From assembly GCA_036231405.1 (NCBI GenBank), contig JAZAHK010000018.1:1-38625 (forward strand): a stretch of 38,625 nt of DNA. Direction: 5' to 3'. Both the position numbers and the translations under genes were made by a program. Positions 2,954 to 16,959 of the stretch are shown one piece after another (the stretch's first letter is position 1; every line of letters starts with the position of its first letter). Under the pieces are notes generated by a model. That model was not told the DNA's origin, ran no database searches, and saw only the letters and a program-made list of their open reading frames with translations. The DNA is from Nitrospinota bacterium (GTDB lineage: Bacteria > UBA8248).

Positions 2954-3094
2954 GATATTTTTATAAAGATATTAATTAAAATTTTTATCTCATATTCGGT
3001 AATATTATATATTAAATTTGTTTCTGAAAAGTTTGTGATTTCTTTTGAAAGAATTTCCCTTTTTTGTAGATAATTTTTTCTGGAAAGCTTAAAG

Positions 3095-4213
3095 ATGGTA
3101 GATAGCATATATGGTAATAACAAAAAATTGAACTTGGCAAAGAATTATCAGAATCATCAAGTGCTTTTATCACTCATTTCTTCTTCCATTTCGTTTATTT
3201 ACACTATCTTTTTTGTTCTTTTTTTTCTTTCCCAAAATAAAGTGTTTGAATTGAATCCTTTTCTTTCTGGGATTTGCTATTTTAGTCTATATTTTGTTTC
3301 GAGAACACTTTTAGTTTTCCCATTTCAAATTAAACAAAGTTTTCAGTTGCCTAAAAATATCGGGTTGCTGAGTGAAACATTTTTTGTTTGGTTGTTTAAT
3401 CAATGTAAATTTTTTATATTGATACTTTTTTTGGGTTCCTTCGCAAGTGGTTTTCTTTTGATTTGTATTCAAAATTATCCTGATTTCTGGTGGTTATTTT
3501 TTTTAATCTTAATCTCTTGTTTTTTTGTCTTTATTTTTCTATTTGGCCAAACAATAATTGCCCCACTATTTTTTGATTTTGAAAAATTATCTGACGCGAG
3601 AATACAAAATTTATTAATGAGTTTAAAGAAAAAAATAGGTTTGGGAATTCAAAGTGATATTTGGGTGATGAAGATGAAAGAACATGGAGATTACGCGAAC
3701 GCTTTCGTTTCAGGATTTGGCCTAACTCGTAAAATAGTAATTACTGAAAATATTCTTGAATATGATCCGGAAGAAGTCGAATGTATTGTAGCTCATGAAC
3801 TTGCACACCAATTTTTTTCGCATAACTTACTTTTATGTATATATAAAATAGTAAGTTTTGCAGGGAGCATCTATCTTTTTAAGTTTTTATTGTATTCTGA
3901 GTTGTCTTATTTTCAAACTAATCAATTAGATATTTCTTCACCTAACACAATCGGAATTTTTCTTGTTTTTCTCTGGGTTTTAAATTTTTTAATTTCCCCA
4001 ATTTTACTGAAAATTTCTAGAGAAATGGAATTTGCATGCGACTTGTTCGCTTTCAAGCACGTATCCAGTCAAAAATGTATGATTTCTATTCTGAAAAAAC
4101 TTTGTGTTAGAAATTTCTGTGATCCTGACCCAACGTGGCTGGTTAGGATATTCTTTTGTACACATCCTCCTTTTTCAGAAAGGATTGAACGTTTGACATC
4201 CTTATTGAAGTAG
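3095..4213 (+). CDS. M48 family (Ste24/HtpX-like) membrane zinc metallopeptidase
   Basis: NAFVSGFG, VAHELAH (HExxH), SREMEFACD, THPPFSERI; several TM segments. Confidence 0.88.
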   Translation: MVDSIYGNNKKLNLAKNYQNHQVLLSLISSSISFIYTIFFVLFFLSQNKVFELNPFLSGICYFSLYFVSRTLLVFPFQIKQSFQLPKNIGLLSETFFVWLFNQCKFFILILFLGSFASGFLLICIQNYPDFWWLFFLILISCFFVFIFLFGQTIIAPLFFDFEKLSDARIQNLLMSLKKKIGLGIQSDIWVMKMKEHGDYANAFVSGFGLTRKIVITENILEYDPEEVECIVAHELAHQFFSHNLLLCIYKIVSFAGSIYLFKFLLYSELSYFQTNQLDISSPNTIGIFLVFLWVLNFLISPILLKISREMEFACDLFAFKHVSSQKCMISILKKLCVRNFCDPDPTWLVRIFFCTHPPFSERIERLTSLLK

Positions 4214-4237
4214 TTTTGGAATCTAACTTCAAATGTA

Positions 4238-5104
4238 CTAGTTGTACTTTATTTCATTGTTAATGTGTTTTTCTATGATTGGGAGGATTCGTTTTTTTAT
4301 AATTATTCTTTGAAAAAATAGTTTTTTCGTTTTTTCTCTGATTTTCATAACTTTATATCTTTTTTTATGGAGTTTAAGAGAGGCAATTAATTTGTTTTGC
4401 TGTTTTAACTCATAATCCTTCCCTTTAGCATTTTGAATTATGAAGATGGGAGTTTGCAGTTTTTCTATTTCCTTTAAGGAAGAACGAAAATTTATTTTAT
4501 AATCTCCGTCTGCCAAAAAATTCTTTAGCTTAAATCTTATATTTCTAGGAATTTGCCTTACAACTCTTCTAGGCTGAAAGATACCGTTTTCTACAATAAC
4601 GAGTTGAACCTCGGGGTTTTGGATGGCTGCATTAATGGCAGCATTAGCTCCGAATTCTTTAGCATAAAGAAAAATAGATCTTTCTCTACTCGAATTCATT
4701 TTAGATAAATAAGAAATTGCTCTACTAATTGATTTGACACTTTTCTTTCCTCCAAAATCATCAGGTCCTGTAGAATTTCCGAAACCAGGAAGTGAAATAC
4801 TCATTGCAATAATAGGATATCCTATCAATAATAGTAGTTCTTTTTTGTTTTTTTGATTATTCCCAACTGAAGAATGAATCATCAAAAGGGATGGAAAATA
4901 ACCCTTCTCATAGGGCCAAGTAATACTGGCCTCTATTTTTCCGAATTTTGTATTGATGAACCAATCTTTTATATTTTGATTTTTTGAAATCTGTGTTTGA
5001 AAGCTATCATAGCTACAATTTGTTAGAAATATTATGAAGATGAATATGCAAAATATAGATTTTGTCCTATGTGTACACAAAGAGTAACATCCTTTATTCT
5101 CCAA
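4238..5104 (-). CDS. Alpha/beta-hydrolase-fold lipoprotein (S9-like), catalytic triad apparently degenerate
   Basis: Hydrophobic signal plus LTNC lipobox; SLPGFGNSTG motif; the nucleophile elbow reads AKEFG rather than GxSxG; start codon uncertain. Confidence 0.6.
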   Translation of the reverse strand: MENKGCYSLCTHRTKSIFCIFIFIIFLTNCSYDSFQTQISKNQNIKDWFINTKFGKIEASITWPYEKGYFPSLLMIHSSVGNNQKNKKELLLLIGYPIIAMSISLPGFGNSTGPDDFGGKKSVKSISRAISYLSKMNSSRERSIFLYAKEFGANAAINAAIQNPEVQLVIVENGIFQPRRVVRQIPRNIRFKLKNFLADGDYKINFRSSLKEIEKLQTPIFIIQNAKGKDYELKQQNKLIASLKLHKKRYKVMKIREKTKKLFFQRIIIKKRILPIIEKHINNEIKYN

Positions 5105-13880: not shown

Positions 13881-14756
13881 ATGTCTAAAAAAATTGCATA
13901 TCTTGGGTTAGGAACTATGGGAAGGGCCATGGCTCGTAATTTAGTGGAGGCTGGTTATATAGTTAGAGGATATGATCCAGATTCGAATGCAAGAGAAAAT
14001 GCAAATAGTTTTGGGGTGGAAGTTTTCTTAAGTGCTGCGGAAGCAGCGAGTGATGTAGATGTGATTTGCAGTTCTGTTCCTAGGACAGAACATGTGAAGG
14101 AAACTTATCTCTCAGATAATGGGGCCTTATCGACTGCATCGAGTGGAACTGTTTGTTTTGATTTTTCAACTATTTCGCCAGAGGGTAGTTGTGAAGTCGC
14201 CGAAGGAGCTAAAAAAAATGGAGTTATTTTTCTTGACACCCCAGTAGGTGGGAGTGAACCACAAGCAATTACTGGAGATTTACATGTTATGGTCGGAGGG
14301 GATAAAATCGCATTTGAAAAGCATAGAGATATTTTGGAAACGCTTGGAAAAACTGTGCATTATTTTGGGGATAATGGTACTGCTTTAAAGATGAAACTTG
14401 TTGCGAATCAAATATTTTCTATTTTCATGTGTGCCATTTCCGAAGGACTAGTACTTGGGATGAAATCCGGTTTAGATCCAGTAGAGATGATTGACTATTT
14501 TAAGACAAGTTCTCATCCAAGGGTTTTTGACTTAAAGGGAGATGCCCTTGCAAAGAAGGATTATACTCCTACATTTAAAGTTGACCTTATGAAAAAGGAT
14601 TTAGGTTTAGTGGCTGAGATGGCATCTTATGCGAACATGCCTACCAATTTTGCAGCTCTTGCATGGCAAGTTTTTAAGTCAACATCAGCACTTGGTTTTG
14701 GGGATCAAGATCAAGCAGCAATAAGAGAGTTTTTCGAAAAAAGCTCAGGAAACTAA
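13881..14756 (+). CDS. Beta-hydroxyacid dehydrogenase (3-hydroxyisobutyrate/tartronate semialdehyde reductase family)
   Basis: GLGTMG, DFSTISP, FLDTPVGGS, MVGG, catalytic MKLVAN, LMKKDL. Confidence 0.88.
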   Translation: MSKKIAYLGLGTMGRAMARNLVEAGYIVRGYDPDSNARENANSFGVEVFLSAAEAASDVDVICSSVPRTEHVKETYLSDNGALSTASSGTVCFDFSTISPEGSCEVAEGAKKNGVIFLDTPVGGSEPQAITGDLHVMVGGDKIAFEKHRDILETLGKTVHYFGDNGTALKMKLVANQIFSIFMCAISEGLVLGMKSGLDPVEMIDYFKTSSHPRVFDLKGDALAKKDYTPTFKVDLMKKDLGLVAEMASYANMPTNFAALAWQVFKSTSALGFGDQDQAAIREFFEKSSGN

Positions 14757-14762
14757 TTGAGA

Positions 14763-15296
14763 TTAGGTAAGTAATTCAAGGATTCTTGGTGTTATTTCTA
14801 TCGCACGTTCTCTCAATTGTTCTTCATTTAAACTGCCTACAGGATGAGGAATATACGCTATAGGGTAATTATCTATTCCTCTTATTTTTGCGACCACTTC
14901 CGCAGTTTTTCTGAATGGTTCCGTACATATGACCGCAGTCGGTATTCCTAGTTTTTCTAGTTCGATTCCGTCGTGCACACTGCACGATGAGCAAGAACCT
15001 CAATCGCCCACTGCAGTGATTACAAAGTCACATTTTTTTGCCATTTCTTCATACATTTCTTCTTCAGCGGGACGTGTGTCGTATTCCTTTTTAAGTTCTA
15101 TTGTTTCATGTGGTGTGATTCCCTTTTTTTGTAGTTCTTGAAGTATAAAATGCATTAACTTCTCACCACCTATTTTCGAATTCCAAAGAAGACCACATTT
15201 TTTTTGATTTAGGTCGGATACTCTTTTTGCGAGTTTCCCCTCTTCGGTATTCATTTCTACAGTTGGATCAAAAATAGGAATTCTATTCTCAGTCAT
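14763..15296 (-). CDS. UGSC-family selenoprotein, 177 aa, Sec at codon 99 (UGA at 15000-15002)
   Basis: The two track ORFs (15000-15296 and 14763-14978) share a frame and are separated by a single TGA. Read-through gives DFVITAVGD-U-GSCSSCSVHDGIELEKLGIP. A SECIS-like hairpin follows the TGA, and only the first ATG has an RBS (AGGAG). Confidence 0.9.
14964..14999 (-). promoter_or_regulatory. Candidate bacterial SECIS element
   Basis: mRNA after UGA: GGUUCU-UGCUCA-UCGUGCA-GUG-UGCACGA-C-GGAAUC. It has a perfect 7-bp upper stem, a G-containing apical loop about 20 nt from UGA, and a lower stem GGUUCU/GGAAUC. Confidence 0.75.
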
Positions 15297-15305
15297 TTTT
15301 TTCTC

Positions 15306-16349
15306 CTAGGACGTCTGGGAAAATCGAATTTCTGGAGAAAAAATCTTTTTGGTTACTGTTACTCCATTTCTTCTTCTACTCCAAGAGGGAACCCAAGAGG
15401 AGTGACCTCCCGCTTCCCCCCCTGCTACCACAATAAAAATGTCGTTTGGACTTAACGCATGGCGCACATTGCCATCCTGATCAGCCCATCCTGCACTATC
15501 AATCTTTCCAGTTTCTCTCAGTTTTTTTTCTGGAATTGTTGCATGTTTATAAATATATTCTTTGATCTCCTGTTTAGTTTTATATTCCTTGCTTATTATT
15601 TTTGCGTGTTCAGGAGAAAAAACAAAAAAACTTTGCCCTTCACTCATACTTCCGAGAGATGACATTGTGTTACATGAGGTATCGAGAATTCCTTTTGCTA
15701 GTCCGTAGTGGTTCTGAATATTGTGCGGACCTTCTGTTGCTAGAAGAGTGACCGTACTTTCTTCTTTCTCAAAACCCAATTCGACACTGAGTGATTCCCA
15801 TGGGCTTAATTCTTCATTTTCACCGAAAGTTAAACTATATTTTCCAGGGTTCCCCTGCGTAGACCGATCCATAAGTCCGGGTTTAGCACCTAGGCAGTTA
15901 ATTAATACCAATCTTATGGCTCTTCCAATGGATGCGTTAGCTCTAGACCCAGGTCCGTAAAAGTTTGTTCCTGAATTTAATGAGATTTCTGGACGAACTG
16001 GTCCATTTACGACCATAAGTGGAGCCGCACCACCCGTACTAGATGCACTCGCATGAACGTTATAATCCGGATCTGCCATGGCTTCTAGTGCAGAGATTAA
16101 GACCGGCATATAAACTGGTAGGCATCCTGCAAGAATTGCATTAATTGCAATTTTTTCTGCTTCTACACTTCTTTTTCTTTCAGGTACTTCAAAAATTATT
16201 TGACCTTCTCGTATTCCTCCCGAATCTAGAAAGGTTCGTATCATCTCTTTCGTAGGAGGAATGATAGGCAGACCATCTGTCCACCCTTTTTTATGGTAAA
16301 AATCGACAGTTTCAAAAAAACTTTCTTTATATTCAATTGGTTCTATCAT
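15306..16349 (-). CDS. Uncharacterised UGSC-associated protein (GWTDGLP family)
   Basis: GWTDGLPIIPPT, IAINAILAGC, VNGP, RANASIGRA, QGNPGKY, ENEELSPW and VAGGEAG motifs; its stop overlaps the RBS of the selenoprotein. Confidence 0.8.
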   Translation of the reverse strand: MIEPIEYKESFFETVDFYHKKGWTDGLPIIPPTKEMIRTFLDSGGIREGQIIFEVPERKRSVEAEKIAINAILAGCLPVYMPVLISALEAMADPDYNVHASASSTGGAAPLMVVNGPVRPEISLNSGTNFYGPGSRANASIGRAIRLVLINCLGAKPGLMDRSTQGNPGKYSLTFGENEELSPWESLSVELGFEKEESTVTLLATEGPHNIQNHYGLAKGILDTSCNTMSSLGSMSEGQSFFVFSPEHAKIISKEYKTKQEIKEYIYKHATIPEKKLRETGKIDSAGWADQDGNVRHALSPNDIFIVVAGGEAGGHSSWVPSWSRRRNGVTVTKKIFSPEIRFSQTS

Positions 16350-16380
16350 TATTTTACTATTCTTAATTTTAAAAATTTAA

Positions 16381-16959
16381 TTAATCATTATTTTTTTGCG
16401 TGTTCGCAAGTAAAGAGGTTTTAGTAAAGAGTGATTTTAATTCGTAGCCTTTTTCAGCAAGAATTTCTTTTCCCCCTTCTTCCCGATCTACGAGACAGAT
16501 CACCTCTTGCACTTGAAGATTATTGGCCACTGACGCCTCGATTGCCATAATCGTTGAACTTGCAGTAGTCACTACGTCTTCTACTATGGCAACTTTCATT
16601 TTTTGTTTAAGATTTTTGAGACCTTCTATTCTGTTTTGTAGTCCATGTTGTTTGTCGTTTTTTCGTATGATAAACGCGGGAAGATCGTATCCATTCAAGG
16701 CAGCTGTCAATGAAATTGCCGTAACCATTGGATCAGCTCCAAGTGTAGGACCCCCTACTGCTTCACACTCTGTTTTTCTCAAAATTTCAAAAATGAGTTT
16801 TCCTACCAAAAGTGCTCCCGTCCCATGGAGCGTGACTTGTCTACAGTCCACATAAAAATCACTTTCTTTGCCAGAGGCTAAAATAACTTGTTTTTTTTTA
16901 TAGGATTTTTTAAGTAAAAGAAGTTTTAGTTCTTCCTTAGATTTTTCTTGTTCATACAA
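16381..16959 (-). CDS. pyrE: Orotate phosphoribosyltransferase
   Basis: LASGKESDFYVDCR, GGPTLGADP, IRKNDKQHG, PRPP motif VEDVVTTASS. Confidence 0.92.
   Translation of the reverse strand: MYEQEKSKEELKLLLLKKSYKKKQVILASGKESDFYVDCRQVTLHGTGALLVGKLIFEILRKTECEAVGGPTLGADPMVTAISLTAALNGYDLPAFIIRKNDKQHGLQNRIEGLKNLKQKMKVAIVEDVVTTASSTIMAIEASVANNLQVQEVICLVDREEGGKEILAEKGYELKSLFTKTSLLANTQKNND

Follow-up and report, generated by a model that had tools for sequence, protein, structure and literature searches.

The UGSC selenoprotein and its partner protein in a Nitrospinota bacterium: a candidate two-component reductase

GrdB and PrdB are selenocysteine (Sec) enzymes that pair with a second protein for substrate binding, and a thiol system returns them to the reduced state. 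With GrdF and GrdH they make up the selenoprotein B family (TIGR01917, TIGR01918, TIGR04483). A small selenoprotein that has, like this family, a UxxC redox site is encoded on contig JAZAHK010000018.1 of a Nitrospinota bacterium (assembly GCA_036231405.1), analysed here from position 1 to 38,625 (the window, 38,625 nucleotides). It belongs to the UGSC family, and its gene adjoins that of a 347-residue partner protein. The pair is proposed to be a two-component thiol/selenol-dependent reductase in which the partner would be the catalytic protein and UGSC the Sec/Cys redox subunit. This reading is given a probability of about 0.55. An earlier note on this DNA had presented the two genes as an undescribed redox module with a GrdB/PrdB-like active site.

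In a 2007 paper (PMC1976440) the UGSC-containing protein is entered as a selenoprotein without assigned function. Table 2 of the 2008 Global Ocean Sampling (GOS) paper (Zhang and Gladyshev) counts 255 Sec forms and 21 Cys forms of UGSC, and the paper ranks it among the most abundant selenoproteins of these data. The same paper reports UGSC fused to a domain named 'Unknown_1' ('UGSC/Unknown_1'). The supplementary UGSC fusion reads run on into NGWTDGLP...AGC, which identifies 'Unknown_1' as the partner family. The UGSC entries of reviews from 2022 (PMC9312934) and 2026 (PMC13188914) still list the protein as functionally uncharacterised, and the literature's suggestion for it is a thioredoxin-fold oxidoreductase. 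A full-text literature search on 'UGSC' returned catalogue papers alone as relevant matches. The label 'undescribed system' has to be given up, since the small protein sits in a curated family listed since 2007-2008 and its fusion to the partner domain was published in 2008. Relative to the UGSC entries of the 2008 and later literature, the additions are a near-obligatory partner neighbour, the likeness of the Sec region to GrdB/PrdB, and fusions of the partner to redoxin, thioredoxin-reductase (TrxR)-like and ferredoxin:thioredoxin-reductase (FTR)-like modules.

The gene pair and its selenocysteine codon

The following features define the locus.

15306-16349, minus strand: partner gene, 347 residues; open reading frame (ORF) read from the window, with GWTDGLP at residues 22-28 and LAGC at residues 73-76
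14763-15296, minus strand: UGSC selenoprotein gene, 177 residues when TGA is translated as U (Sec; U99); motif D-U-G-S-C
15000-15002, minus strand: in-frame TGA, assigned as the Sec codon of U99
14969-14989, minus strand: selenocysteine insertion sequence (SECIS)-like hairpin within the coding sequence; core stem 14971-14976 with 14982-14987, apical loop AGUGU; from a single-sequence fold
15303-15308, minus strand: partner stop codon TAG (15306-15308) and AGGAG ribosome-binding site of the selenoprotein gene (15303-15307); read directly

On the minus strand, the junction between the genes is ...TCC TAG GAG AAAAAA ATG. The partner stop codon shares two bases with AGGAG, six A's follow, and the UGSC start codon lies at 15294-15296, so that the intergenic gap is 9 nt. 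Direct reading bore out the two ORFs of the earlier note, their coordinates and the TAG/AGGAG overlap. Every peptide string that it had quoted (DFVITAVGD-U-GSCSSC, IELEKLGIPTAVICT and IPHPVG) is found in the translation.

The UGSC protein matches Pfam PF24696 ('UGSC family') over residues 8-177 with E = 1.7e-52 and 178.5 bits (cut-off 25), and NCBIfam NF041046 ('UGSC family (seleno)protein') with 148.9 bits (cut-off 125). By these profiles, the small protein is a full member of the catalogued family, of the same length and with nothing different at family level. As the PF24696 model spans both sides of the TGA at this E value, the reading of the locus is far beyond chance.

Homologous sites were collected with the partner profile, which matched at least 607 genome stretches, 602 of them encoding a relative. 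Eighty loci (L001-L080) were kept, and a motif search found 76 UGSC-type sites in them. For a collection anchored on UGSC, a tblastn search of plasmids gave 11 records, of which eight with at least 85% coverage were examined and three partial Neorhizobium matches were left out. The Sec position is TGA in 74 of the 76 genome sites and Cys (TGY) in two; TGA occurs once and Cys seven times in the eight plasmid loci. The extended stem of the hairpin begins 10 nt and its core stem 12 nt after the UGA, and it folds in nearly all of the 74 homologous sites. When 69 distinct sequences were aligned without gaps, pairing held in 87.9% of the cells versus 79.1% in shuffles (reached by 0/500), while slid controls were 19-46% paired. 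Compensatory changes altered both sides in five of eight pairs, with 32 doubly changed cells against 7.7 expected (0/500). The position of the hairpin and its conserved loop G-U resemble bacterial SECIS elements. Rfam models scanned over 14700-15400 (E <= 10) matched at chance level only, and no SECIS family was among the matches. The TGA at 15000-15002 is assigned as a genuine Sec codon because it is conserved in 74 of 76 sites and is followed by a covarying hairpin; its alignment with Cys in homologues agrees with the earlier designation as a selenoprotein gene.

The probability is negligible that the TGA is an ordinary stop codon, which would leave a broken gene, or a pair of small unrelated ORFs, next to a hypothetical gene. 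Gene callers do end the protein at the TGA, and 11 of 17 database homologues of UGSC are fragments of 98-113 residues that cover at most 55% of the query and end at the Sec position. A stop is already contradicted by the single family model covering both sides of the TGA, by the TGA standing opposite Cys in Cys-form homologues and being kept across phyla, and by the covarying hairpin downstream.

No variation occurs at U99, G100 and C102 in an alignment of 35 UGSC sequences, and S101 is kept in at least 90%. The invariants of this alignment are N39, K41, K70, D98-U99-G100, C102, T125, F128, H151 and P152. The motif 'UxxCxxC' of the earlier note holds for these positions but not for its last Cys: across 75 homologous sites, position 105 is C in 45, G in 17, W in 9, S in 3 and A in one. 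The SECIS-like stem overlaps codons 103-109, and in the 69-site alignment the protein covaries with the stem. Residue U+6 combines with U+8/U+9 as C + V/L-H (38 sites), G + V-L (16 sites) or W + I-H (7 sites), and the stem is paired in each. Since these combinations keep the stem paired, part of the apparent 'CxxC' after Sec may reflect a constraint on the RNA and not on the protein.

The full-length UGSC homologue P0130 has a W at the Sec position (GDWGSC). This W likely comes from a gene caller reading TGA as Trp; such records would hide selenoproteins as Trp variants. A Sec-form UGSC gene is located on the conjugative IncP plasmid p2-T1 of Acidovorax sp. T1 (L081, locus 2995-4530). It is annotated merely as a 96-aa 'hypothetical protein' ending at the TGA, and the adjoining partner homologue (hidden Markov model (HMM) match 3580-4530) is missing from the displayed gene table. 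Actinobacterial UGSC proteins have a C-terminal extension of about 90 residues with CxxCVMP (L083:2989-3804 on the plasmid of Arthrobacter sp. ERGS1:01; L039:7050-7856). The Arthrobacter extension matches the NifU-like PF01106 (E = 4.3e-6, 27.2 bits, cut-off 27); the L039 protein has no such match.

Linkage, fusions and gene neighbourhood

Both tblastn and HMM found a UGSC homologue in 73 of the 80 partner-anchored loci. Among 87 partner copies, UGSC is located directly downstream on the same strand in 63 and directly upstream on the same strand in 13. Of the other copies, two have it next to them but on the opposite strand, two have it at a distance of more than 800 bp, and seven lack it. In the UGSC-anchored collection, a partner gene is adjacent in 8/8 plasmid loci, and in two haloarchaeal ones, L084 (Halorientalis litorea) and L086 (Halalkalicoccus jeotgali), partner genes flank UGSC on both sides. 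Order labels change 15 times on a tree of 96 partner sequences; in 500 shuffles they change 27.1 times on average and never fewer than 23 times. Gene order is thus inherited yet repeatedly rearranged, with adjacency kept. The linked two-gene module of the earlier note is well supported by the co-occurrence and fusion survey: 76 of 87 copies adjacent on the same strand, all eight plasmid loci, and many natural fusions. The hosts are largely aerobic heterotrophs and haloarchaea.

Several genomes have two or more partner/UGSC pairs of differing subtypes, sometimes less than 6 kb apart (L003 and L020 in one Methylomirabilota assembly, L021, L033, L035, L038, L047, L072). This suggests paralogues with different substrates. 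Partners without UGSC within about 6 kb occur in L042, L063, L070 (Dehalococcoidia), L019, L065 and L067. Three of them have in common a distinctive residue pattern (I99, Q105, C317) and lie beside proB-like genes. Partners of this kind may use another redox partner or one encoded elsewhere.

Natural fusions were surveyed in the best 150 representatives of the partner family. The 67 of at least 400 residues were scanned with Pfam, and eight sequences were inspected. A UGSC domain or half of it is present in 38 of the 67: 12 have a complete N-terminal domain, 21 start with the C-terminal half, and five end in the N-terminal half at profile position 92, just before Sec. The 21 are as expected if gene callers restart after a Sec codon. 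In five of the 67, an N-terminal AhpC-TSA/Redoxin domain with CxxC takes the place of UGSC. One (P0229) has a C-terminal Pyr_redox_2 domain with a CAVC motif. Two have FeThRed_B, the beta chain of ferredoxin:thioredoxin reductase, and one of these also has a UGSC half. No family was assigned in 22 of the 67, including tandem partner-partner proteins of about 710 residues. UGSC-partner fusions are also located in L033 and L088, and a plasmid locus of Variovorax boronicumulans encodes a 545-aa Cys-form fusion. A word-based search for longer, fused relatives of the UGSC protein of the window found none.

Thioredoxin-system genes accompany some of the pairs. The Arthrobacter sp. ERGS1:01 plasmid has the order trxB-trxA-partner-UGSC, with an overlap of 4 nt between trxA and the partner gene. 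Pyr_redox_2 genes of TrxB size lie beside the Variovorax fusion and the L069 pair, and the pair in L054 has a Thioredoxin_3 protein as its neighbour. That the partner is also fused to CxxC redoxin, TrxR-like and FTR-like modules speaks for UGSC as the subunit that delivers electrons to a reductase centred on the partner, although a GrdB-like nucleophile working independently would be compatible with these fusions as well. The redox role that the earlier note ascribed to the module is graded as likely.

In the neighbourhoods of the 80 loci, the commonest recurrent families are SDR (13 loci), MFS (11), CoA-transferase III (8), ABC ATPase (7) and TauD (6). Within 500 bp of the pair lie 138 ORFs, of which 133 were scanned and the five longest were left out. 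These immediate neighbours include MFS (7), CoA-transferase III (5), NHL repeat (5) and alpha/beta hydrolase (4), and about a third have no family. The plasmid loci have TctC, TRAP and TAXI binding proteins, CoA transferases, a CoA-ester lyase and amidohydrolase-like genes as neighbours. The theme of the neighbourhood is organic-acid uptake and catabolism, nothing more specific. A phosphosulfolactate synthase gene is near the pair in two unrelated plasmids, L082 (Natrinema zhouii) and L083 (Arthrobacter). A HIBADH-type gene flanks the partner in L063, and the HIBADH-family dehydrogenase of the window matches sulfolactaldehyde reductase below threshold (1e-43, 148.6 bits, cut-off 348). The two synthases and the HIBADH neighbours give a faint hint at organosulfonate metabolism.

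In the window, this HIBADH-family dehydrogenase gene (13881-14756, plus strand) and an ABC sugar-type transporter are convergent with the pair. On the other side, pyrE (orotate phosphoribosyltransferase, TIGR00336, 121.4 bits; 16381-16959, minus strand) ends 31 nt upstream of the partner start. The spacer (16350-16380) is rich in A and T; neither a clear ribosome-binding site nor a promoter above chance was found in it. With this arrangement, pyrE and the partner gene may be co-transcribed. Promoter and terminator scans gave nothing above chance, and a scan of the window for tRNA and Sec-machinery genes found none.

Predicted folds and the relation to GrdB and PrdB

The AlphaFold2 model of UGSC has a mean predicted local distance difference test score (pLDDT) of 94.8 and forms one domain in which five beta-strands alternate with alpha-helices. 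Helix 100-115 comes after strand 91-97 and has U99 and C102 at its start. The invariant residues are located at the C-terminal ends of the beta-strands in the model, which would be the usual active-site location in alpha/beta domains. At E <= 1e-3, Foldseek gave 69 matches to the Protein Data Bank (PDB), led by flavodoxin-like domains and flavin mononucleotide (FMN) reductases with template-modelling (TM) scores of about 0.37-0.48; among the matches listed there is no thioredoxin fold, and no GrdB or PrdB structure either. The modelled fold is flavodoxin-like, not a thioredoxin fold. Flavodoxins, FMN reductases and the flavodoxin domains of flavodiiron proteins are the closest folds, at fold level only, with 7-20% identity, and the Sec/Cys pair of the UGSC active site is unlike these relatives. 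No sign of flavin binding came up, and none was looked for. Thioredoxin-fold CxxC carriers (thioredoxin, TlpA/ResA-like redoxins) differ in fold from the UGSC model but have, like UGSC, a two-residue redox motif at a helix start. A dedicated reductase partner and fusion or adjacency to TrxR-like modules are also common to both. Likening UGSC and its partner to thioredoxin with methionine sulfoxide reductase (Msr) or arsenate reductase (ArsC) is an analogy; the partner is unrelated in sequence to the Msr, ArsC and PAPS reductase models.

The resemblance to GrdB/PrdB is confined to the Sec region. The UGSC protein of the window (P0001), with Sec read as C, matches the GrdB model TIGR01917 with E = 7.4e-6, residues 77-167 aligning to profile positions 325-414 of 431. 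Judged from these coordinates, the matched stretch includes U99. The score is 25.1 bits against a cut-off of 602.2, and TIGR01918 gives 19.3 bits against 65.45; the matches to TIGR01918 and to the GrdF and GrdH models are weaker. Four of six UGSC proteins match a GrdB or PrdB model at E <= 0.023, all far below the family cut-offs, and other UGSC members score at most 17.6 bits with the PrdB model TIGR04483, whose cut-off is 300. A Pfam scan of the UGSC protein at E <= 0.01 gave no GRDB-family match. Remote homology of the Sec region to GrdB/PrdB is probable from these profile matches. The resemblance that the earlier note had seen is thus repeated as a sub-threshold match, but it covers the Sec region only and misses the family cut-offs. 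Membership in the GrdB/PrdB family is contradicted by these scores and by a partner without any Grd/Prd likeness.

Other differences concern architecture and hosts. The weak similarity extends over about 90 residues, and UGSC has 177 residues versus about 430 profile positions for GrdB or about 240 for PrdB. The N-terminal part of GrdB is absent from both UGSC and partner. A 'split GrdB', with the partner as the N-terminal part, was ruled out: none of 29 partner members has a Grd/Prd match at E <= 10 in Pfam or NCBIfam. Unlike GrdB/PrdB systems, UGSC occurs in aerobic heterotrophs and haloarchaea, and many members have Cys instead of Sec. No grdA/C/D/E or prdA-like gene was found in 39 ORFs of the window, 19 recurrent neighbour families, the 133 immediate neighbours or the eight plasmid loci. 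The earlier statement that the window lacks grd and prd genes holds for the 39 ORFs scanned against Pfam, but is not established for every small ORF.

The partner belongs to a large family without a name. It has 4890 relatives in a 90% clustered collection, and in a 50% library 6527 cluster representatives match at E <= 1e-3, 4359 of them at E <= 1e-10. Pfam gave no family for 29 of 29 members at E <= 10. NCBIfam gave none either, with a weak DsbG match in 7/29 (best E = 0.0086). A sequence search of the PDB had no match with the partner profile and nothing meaningful with the UGSC profile. The ESM Atlas returned unnamed clusters only for the partner, and none were left after UGSC-carrying clusters had been excluded. 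The AlphaFold2 model of the partner (pLDDT 81.3, predicted TM score 0.84) is least confident in the highly conserved loops 102-106 and 159-170, and Foldseek found no PDB match at E <= 1e-3. Weak leads are class I fumarate hydratase (E = 2.7e-3, TM 0.28) and Toblerone-fold hydrolases (E about 0.1).

Conserved motifs of the partner are GWTDGLP, AGC76, STGG, RANxxIGRAxRL, DRSTQGxPGK and GGHS. Near-universal residues among 96 sequences are D25 (95), C76 (92), R136 (90), R143 (96), R146 (89), D161 (94), K170 (93) and E177 (96), a set that suggests an anionic small-molecule substrate. Tandem proteins of about 710 residues contain two or three partner-domain stretches (P0140, P0145, P0146, P0148, P0154, P0158). 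Together with the haloarchaeal order partner-UGSC-partner, they hint at a partner that acts as a dimer or pseudo-dimer.

Proposed mechanism, alternatives and significance

In the proposed reductase, electrons would enter from NAD(P)H via a thioredoxin-reductase-type flavoprotein, with or without thioredoxin, or through a ferredoxin:thioredoxin-reductase-type module. They would be transferred to Sec99 and Cys102 of UGSC, which would alternate between selenol/thiol and selenenylsulfide, and further to the active site of the partner, either Cys76 or the bound substrate. The 347-aa partner would be the catalytic, substrate-binding subunit. We infer this direction of electron flow, the role of Cys76 and the nature of the substrate, as well as, from adjacency and fusion, a physical complex of the two proteins. 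A more specific version is put forward tentatively, at somewhat less than even odds: the partner may represent the catalytic domain in a new class of reductases that depend on the thioredoxin system and have a fold unseen in solved structures, UGSC may be a flavodoxin-fold Sec/Cys redox subunit sharing the ancestry of the GrdB/PrdB Sec domain, and the pair may serve aerobic marine and soil bacteria, as well as haloarchaea, in reducing an abundant anionic metabolite.

Several observations weigh against a two-component reductase. The partner model has no significant structural neighbour, and nothing independent indicates a 'reductase'. Clustering of neighbouring ORFs in the 80 loci found no third conserved gene and hence no pointer to the substrate. 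Thioredoxin-system genes are scarce nearby (2/133 neighbouring ORFs and 2/8 plasmid loci). The redoxin, TrxR and FTR fusions amount to 8 of 150 representatives; they are unannotated predictions, and some may be assembly or gene-calling artefacts. For seven of the 87 partner genes, no UGSC was found within about 6 kb; one of the seven lies on a 2.7-kb contig. In one group of partner genes, Ala takes the place of Cys76 (4 of 96 sequences: L020:2-808, L021:1880-2869, L047:1493-2485, L033:2967-3941). Three of the four adjoin, or form a fusion with, a Sec-type UGSC that reads AD-U-GSCTSW, and the fourth is cut by a contig end. Cys76 is therefore not essential everywhere.

These four sequences are compatible with a covalent catalysis as in GrdB/PrdB. 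Sec99 would then be the nucleophile that attacks a substrate held by the partner, cleaving a C-N or C-S bond via a Se-C adduct that C102 resolves, and the partner would take the role of the clostridial pyruvoyl subunits GrdE/PrdA. The Sec region's matches to GrdB, GrdF, GrdH and PrdB models, sub-threshold but repeated, point in the same direction. The ring of invariant charged residues around Sec is more than a pure electron carrier needs, and the neighbours are mostly genes for organic-acid uptake and catabolism. Such a mechanism is nevertheless rather unlikely, given scores far under the family cut-offs, a partner without a Grd/Prd match, the lack of grdA/C/D/E or prdA-like genes in the scanned ORFs of the window and among neighbours elsewhere, and hosts that are not Stickland fermenters. 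The replacement of UGSC by a thioredoxin-fold CxxC domain in five fusions fits an electron donor better.

The redox-module fusions are equally compatible with a regulatory reductant. The partner would in this case be a non-redox enzyme, for example an organic-acid hydratase or lyase with an oxidation-prone Cys76, and UGSC would reactivate or regulate it. Its weak fold likeness to class I fumarate hydratase and to Toblerone-fold cyclic amide hydrolases would agree with this, as would neighbouring genes for CoA transferases, CoA-ester lyases, MaoC dehydratases and the ICL/PEP-mutase family. The fold matches are not significant (TM 0.2-0.3), however, UGSC is kept where Cys76 is missing, and a 1:1, often fused, Sec-containing reductant in nearly every genome exceeds the usual regulatory need. 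Regulation or repair is accordingly judged improbable. UxxC and CxxC sites are also common metal or metalloid ligands, and U-x-x-C might bind or transfer Hg, As, Cu, Se or persulfide sulfur, with the partner as a transferase or lyase. The NifU-like CxxC domain at the C-terminus of the Arthrobacter UGSC would fit, and the invariant Arg/Lys cluster of the partner would suit an oxyanion such as arsenate. There are no recurrent metal-resistance or Fe-S assembly genes beside the pair, and the fusions involve disulfide-reductase modules, not metal transporters or regulators; the chance of such a role is slight.

The genes of the window are ordinary members of a catalogued family pair, and the locus as such is not new. 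The pair probably represents a new enzyme type. UGSC is tied to one specific partner enzyme of a large family that has neither a family name nor a known fold, and the partner is wired to thioredoxin-type redox modules, so that the question of function becomes testable. Cys-form pairs occur in harmless cultured organisms (Arthrobacter sp. ERGS1:01, on a plasmid whose operon also has trxB-trxA; Variovorax boronicumulans; Halalkalicoccus jeotgali B3), which makes biochemistry and genetics feasible. If the more specific version of the proposal is true, a new reductase for an abundant anionic metabolite would explain why UGSC is so common among the selenoproteins of ocean metagenomes.

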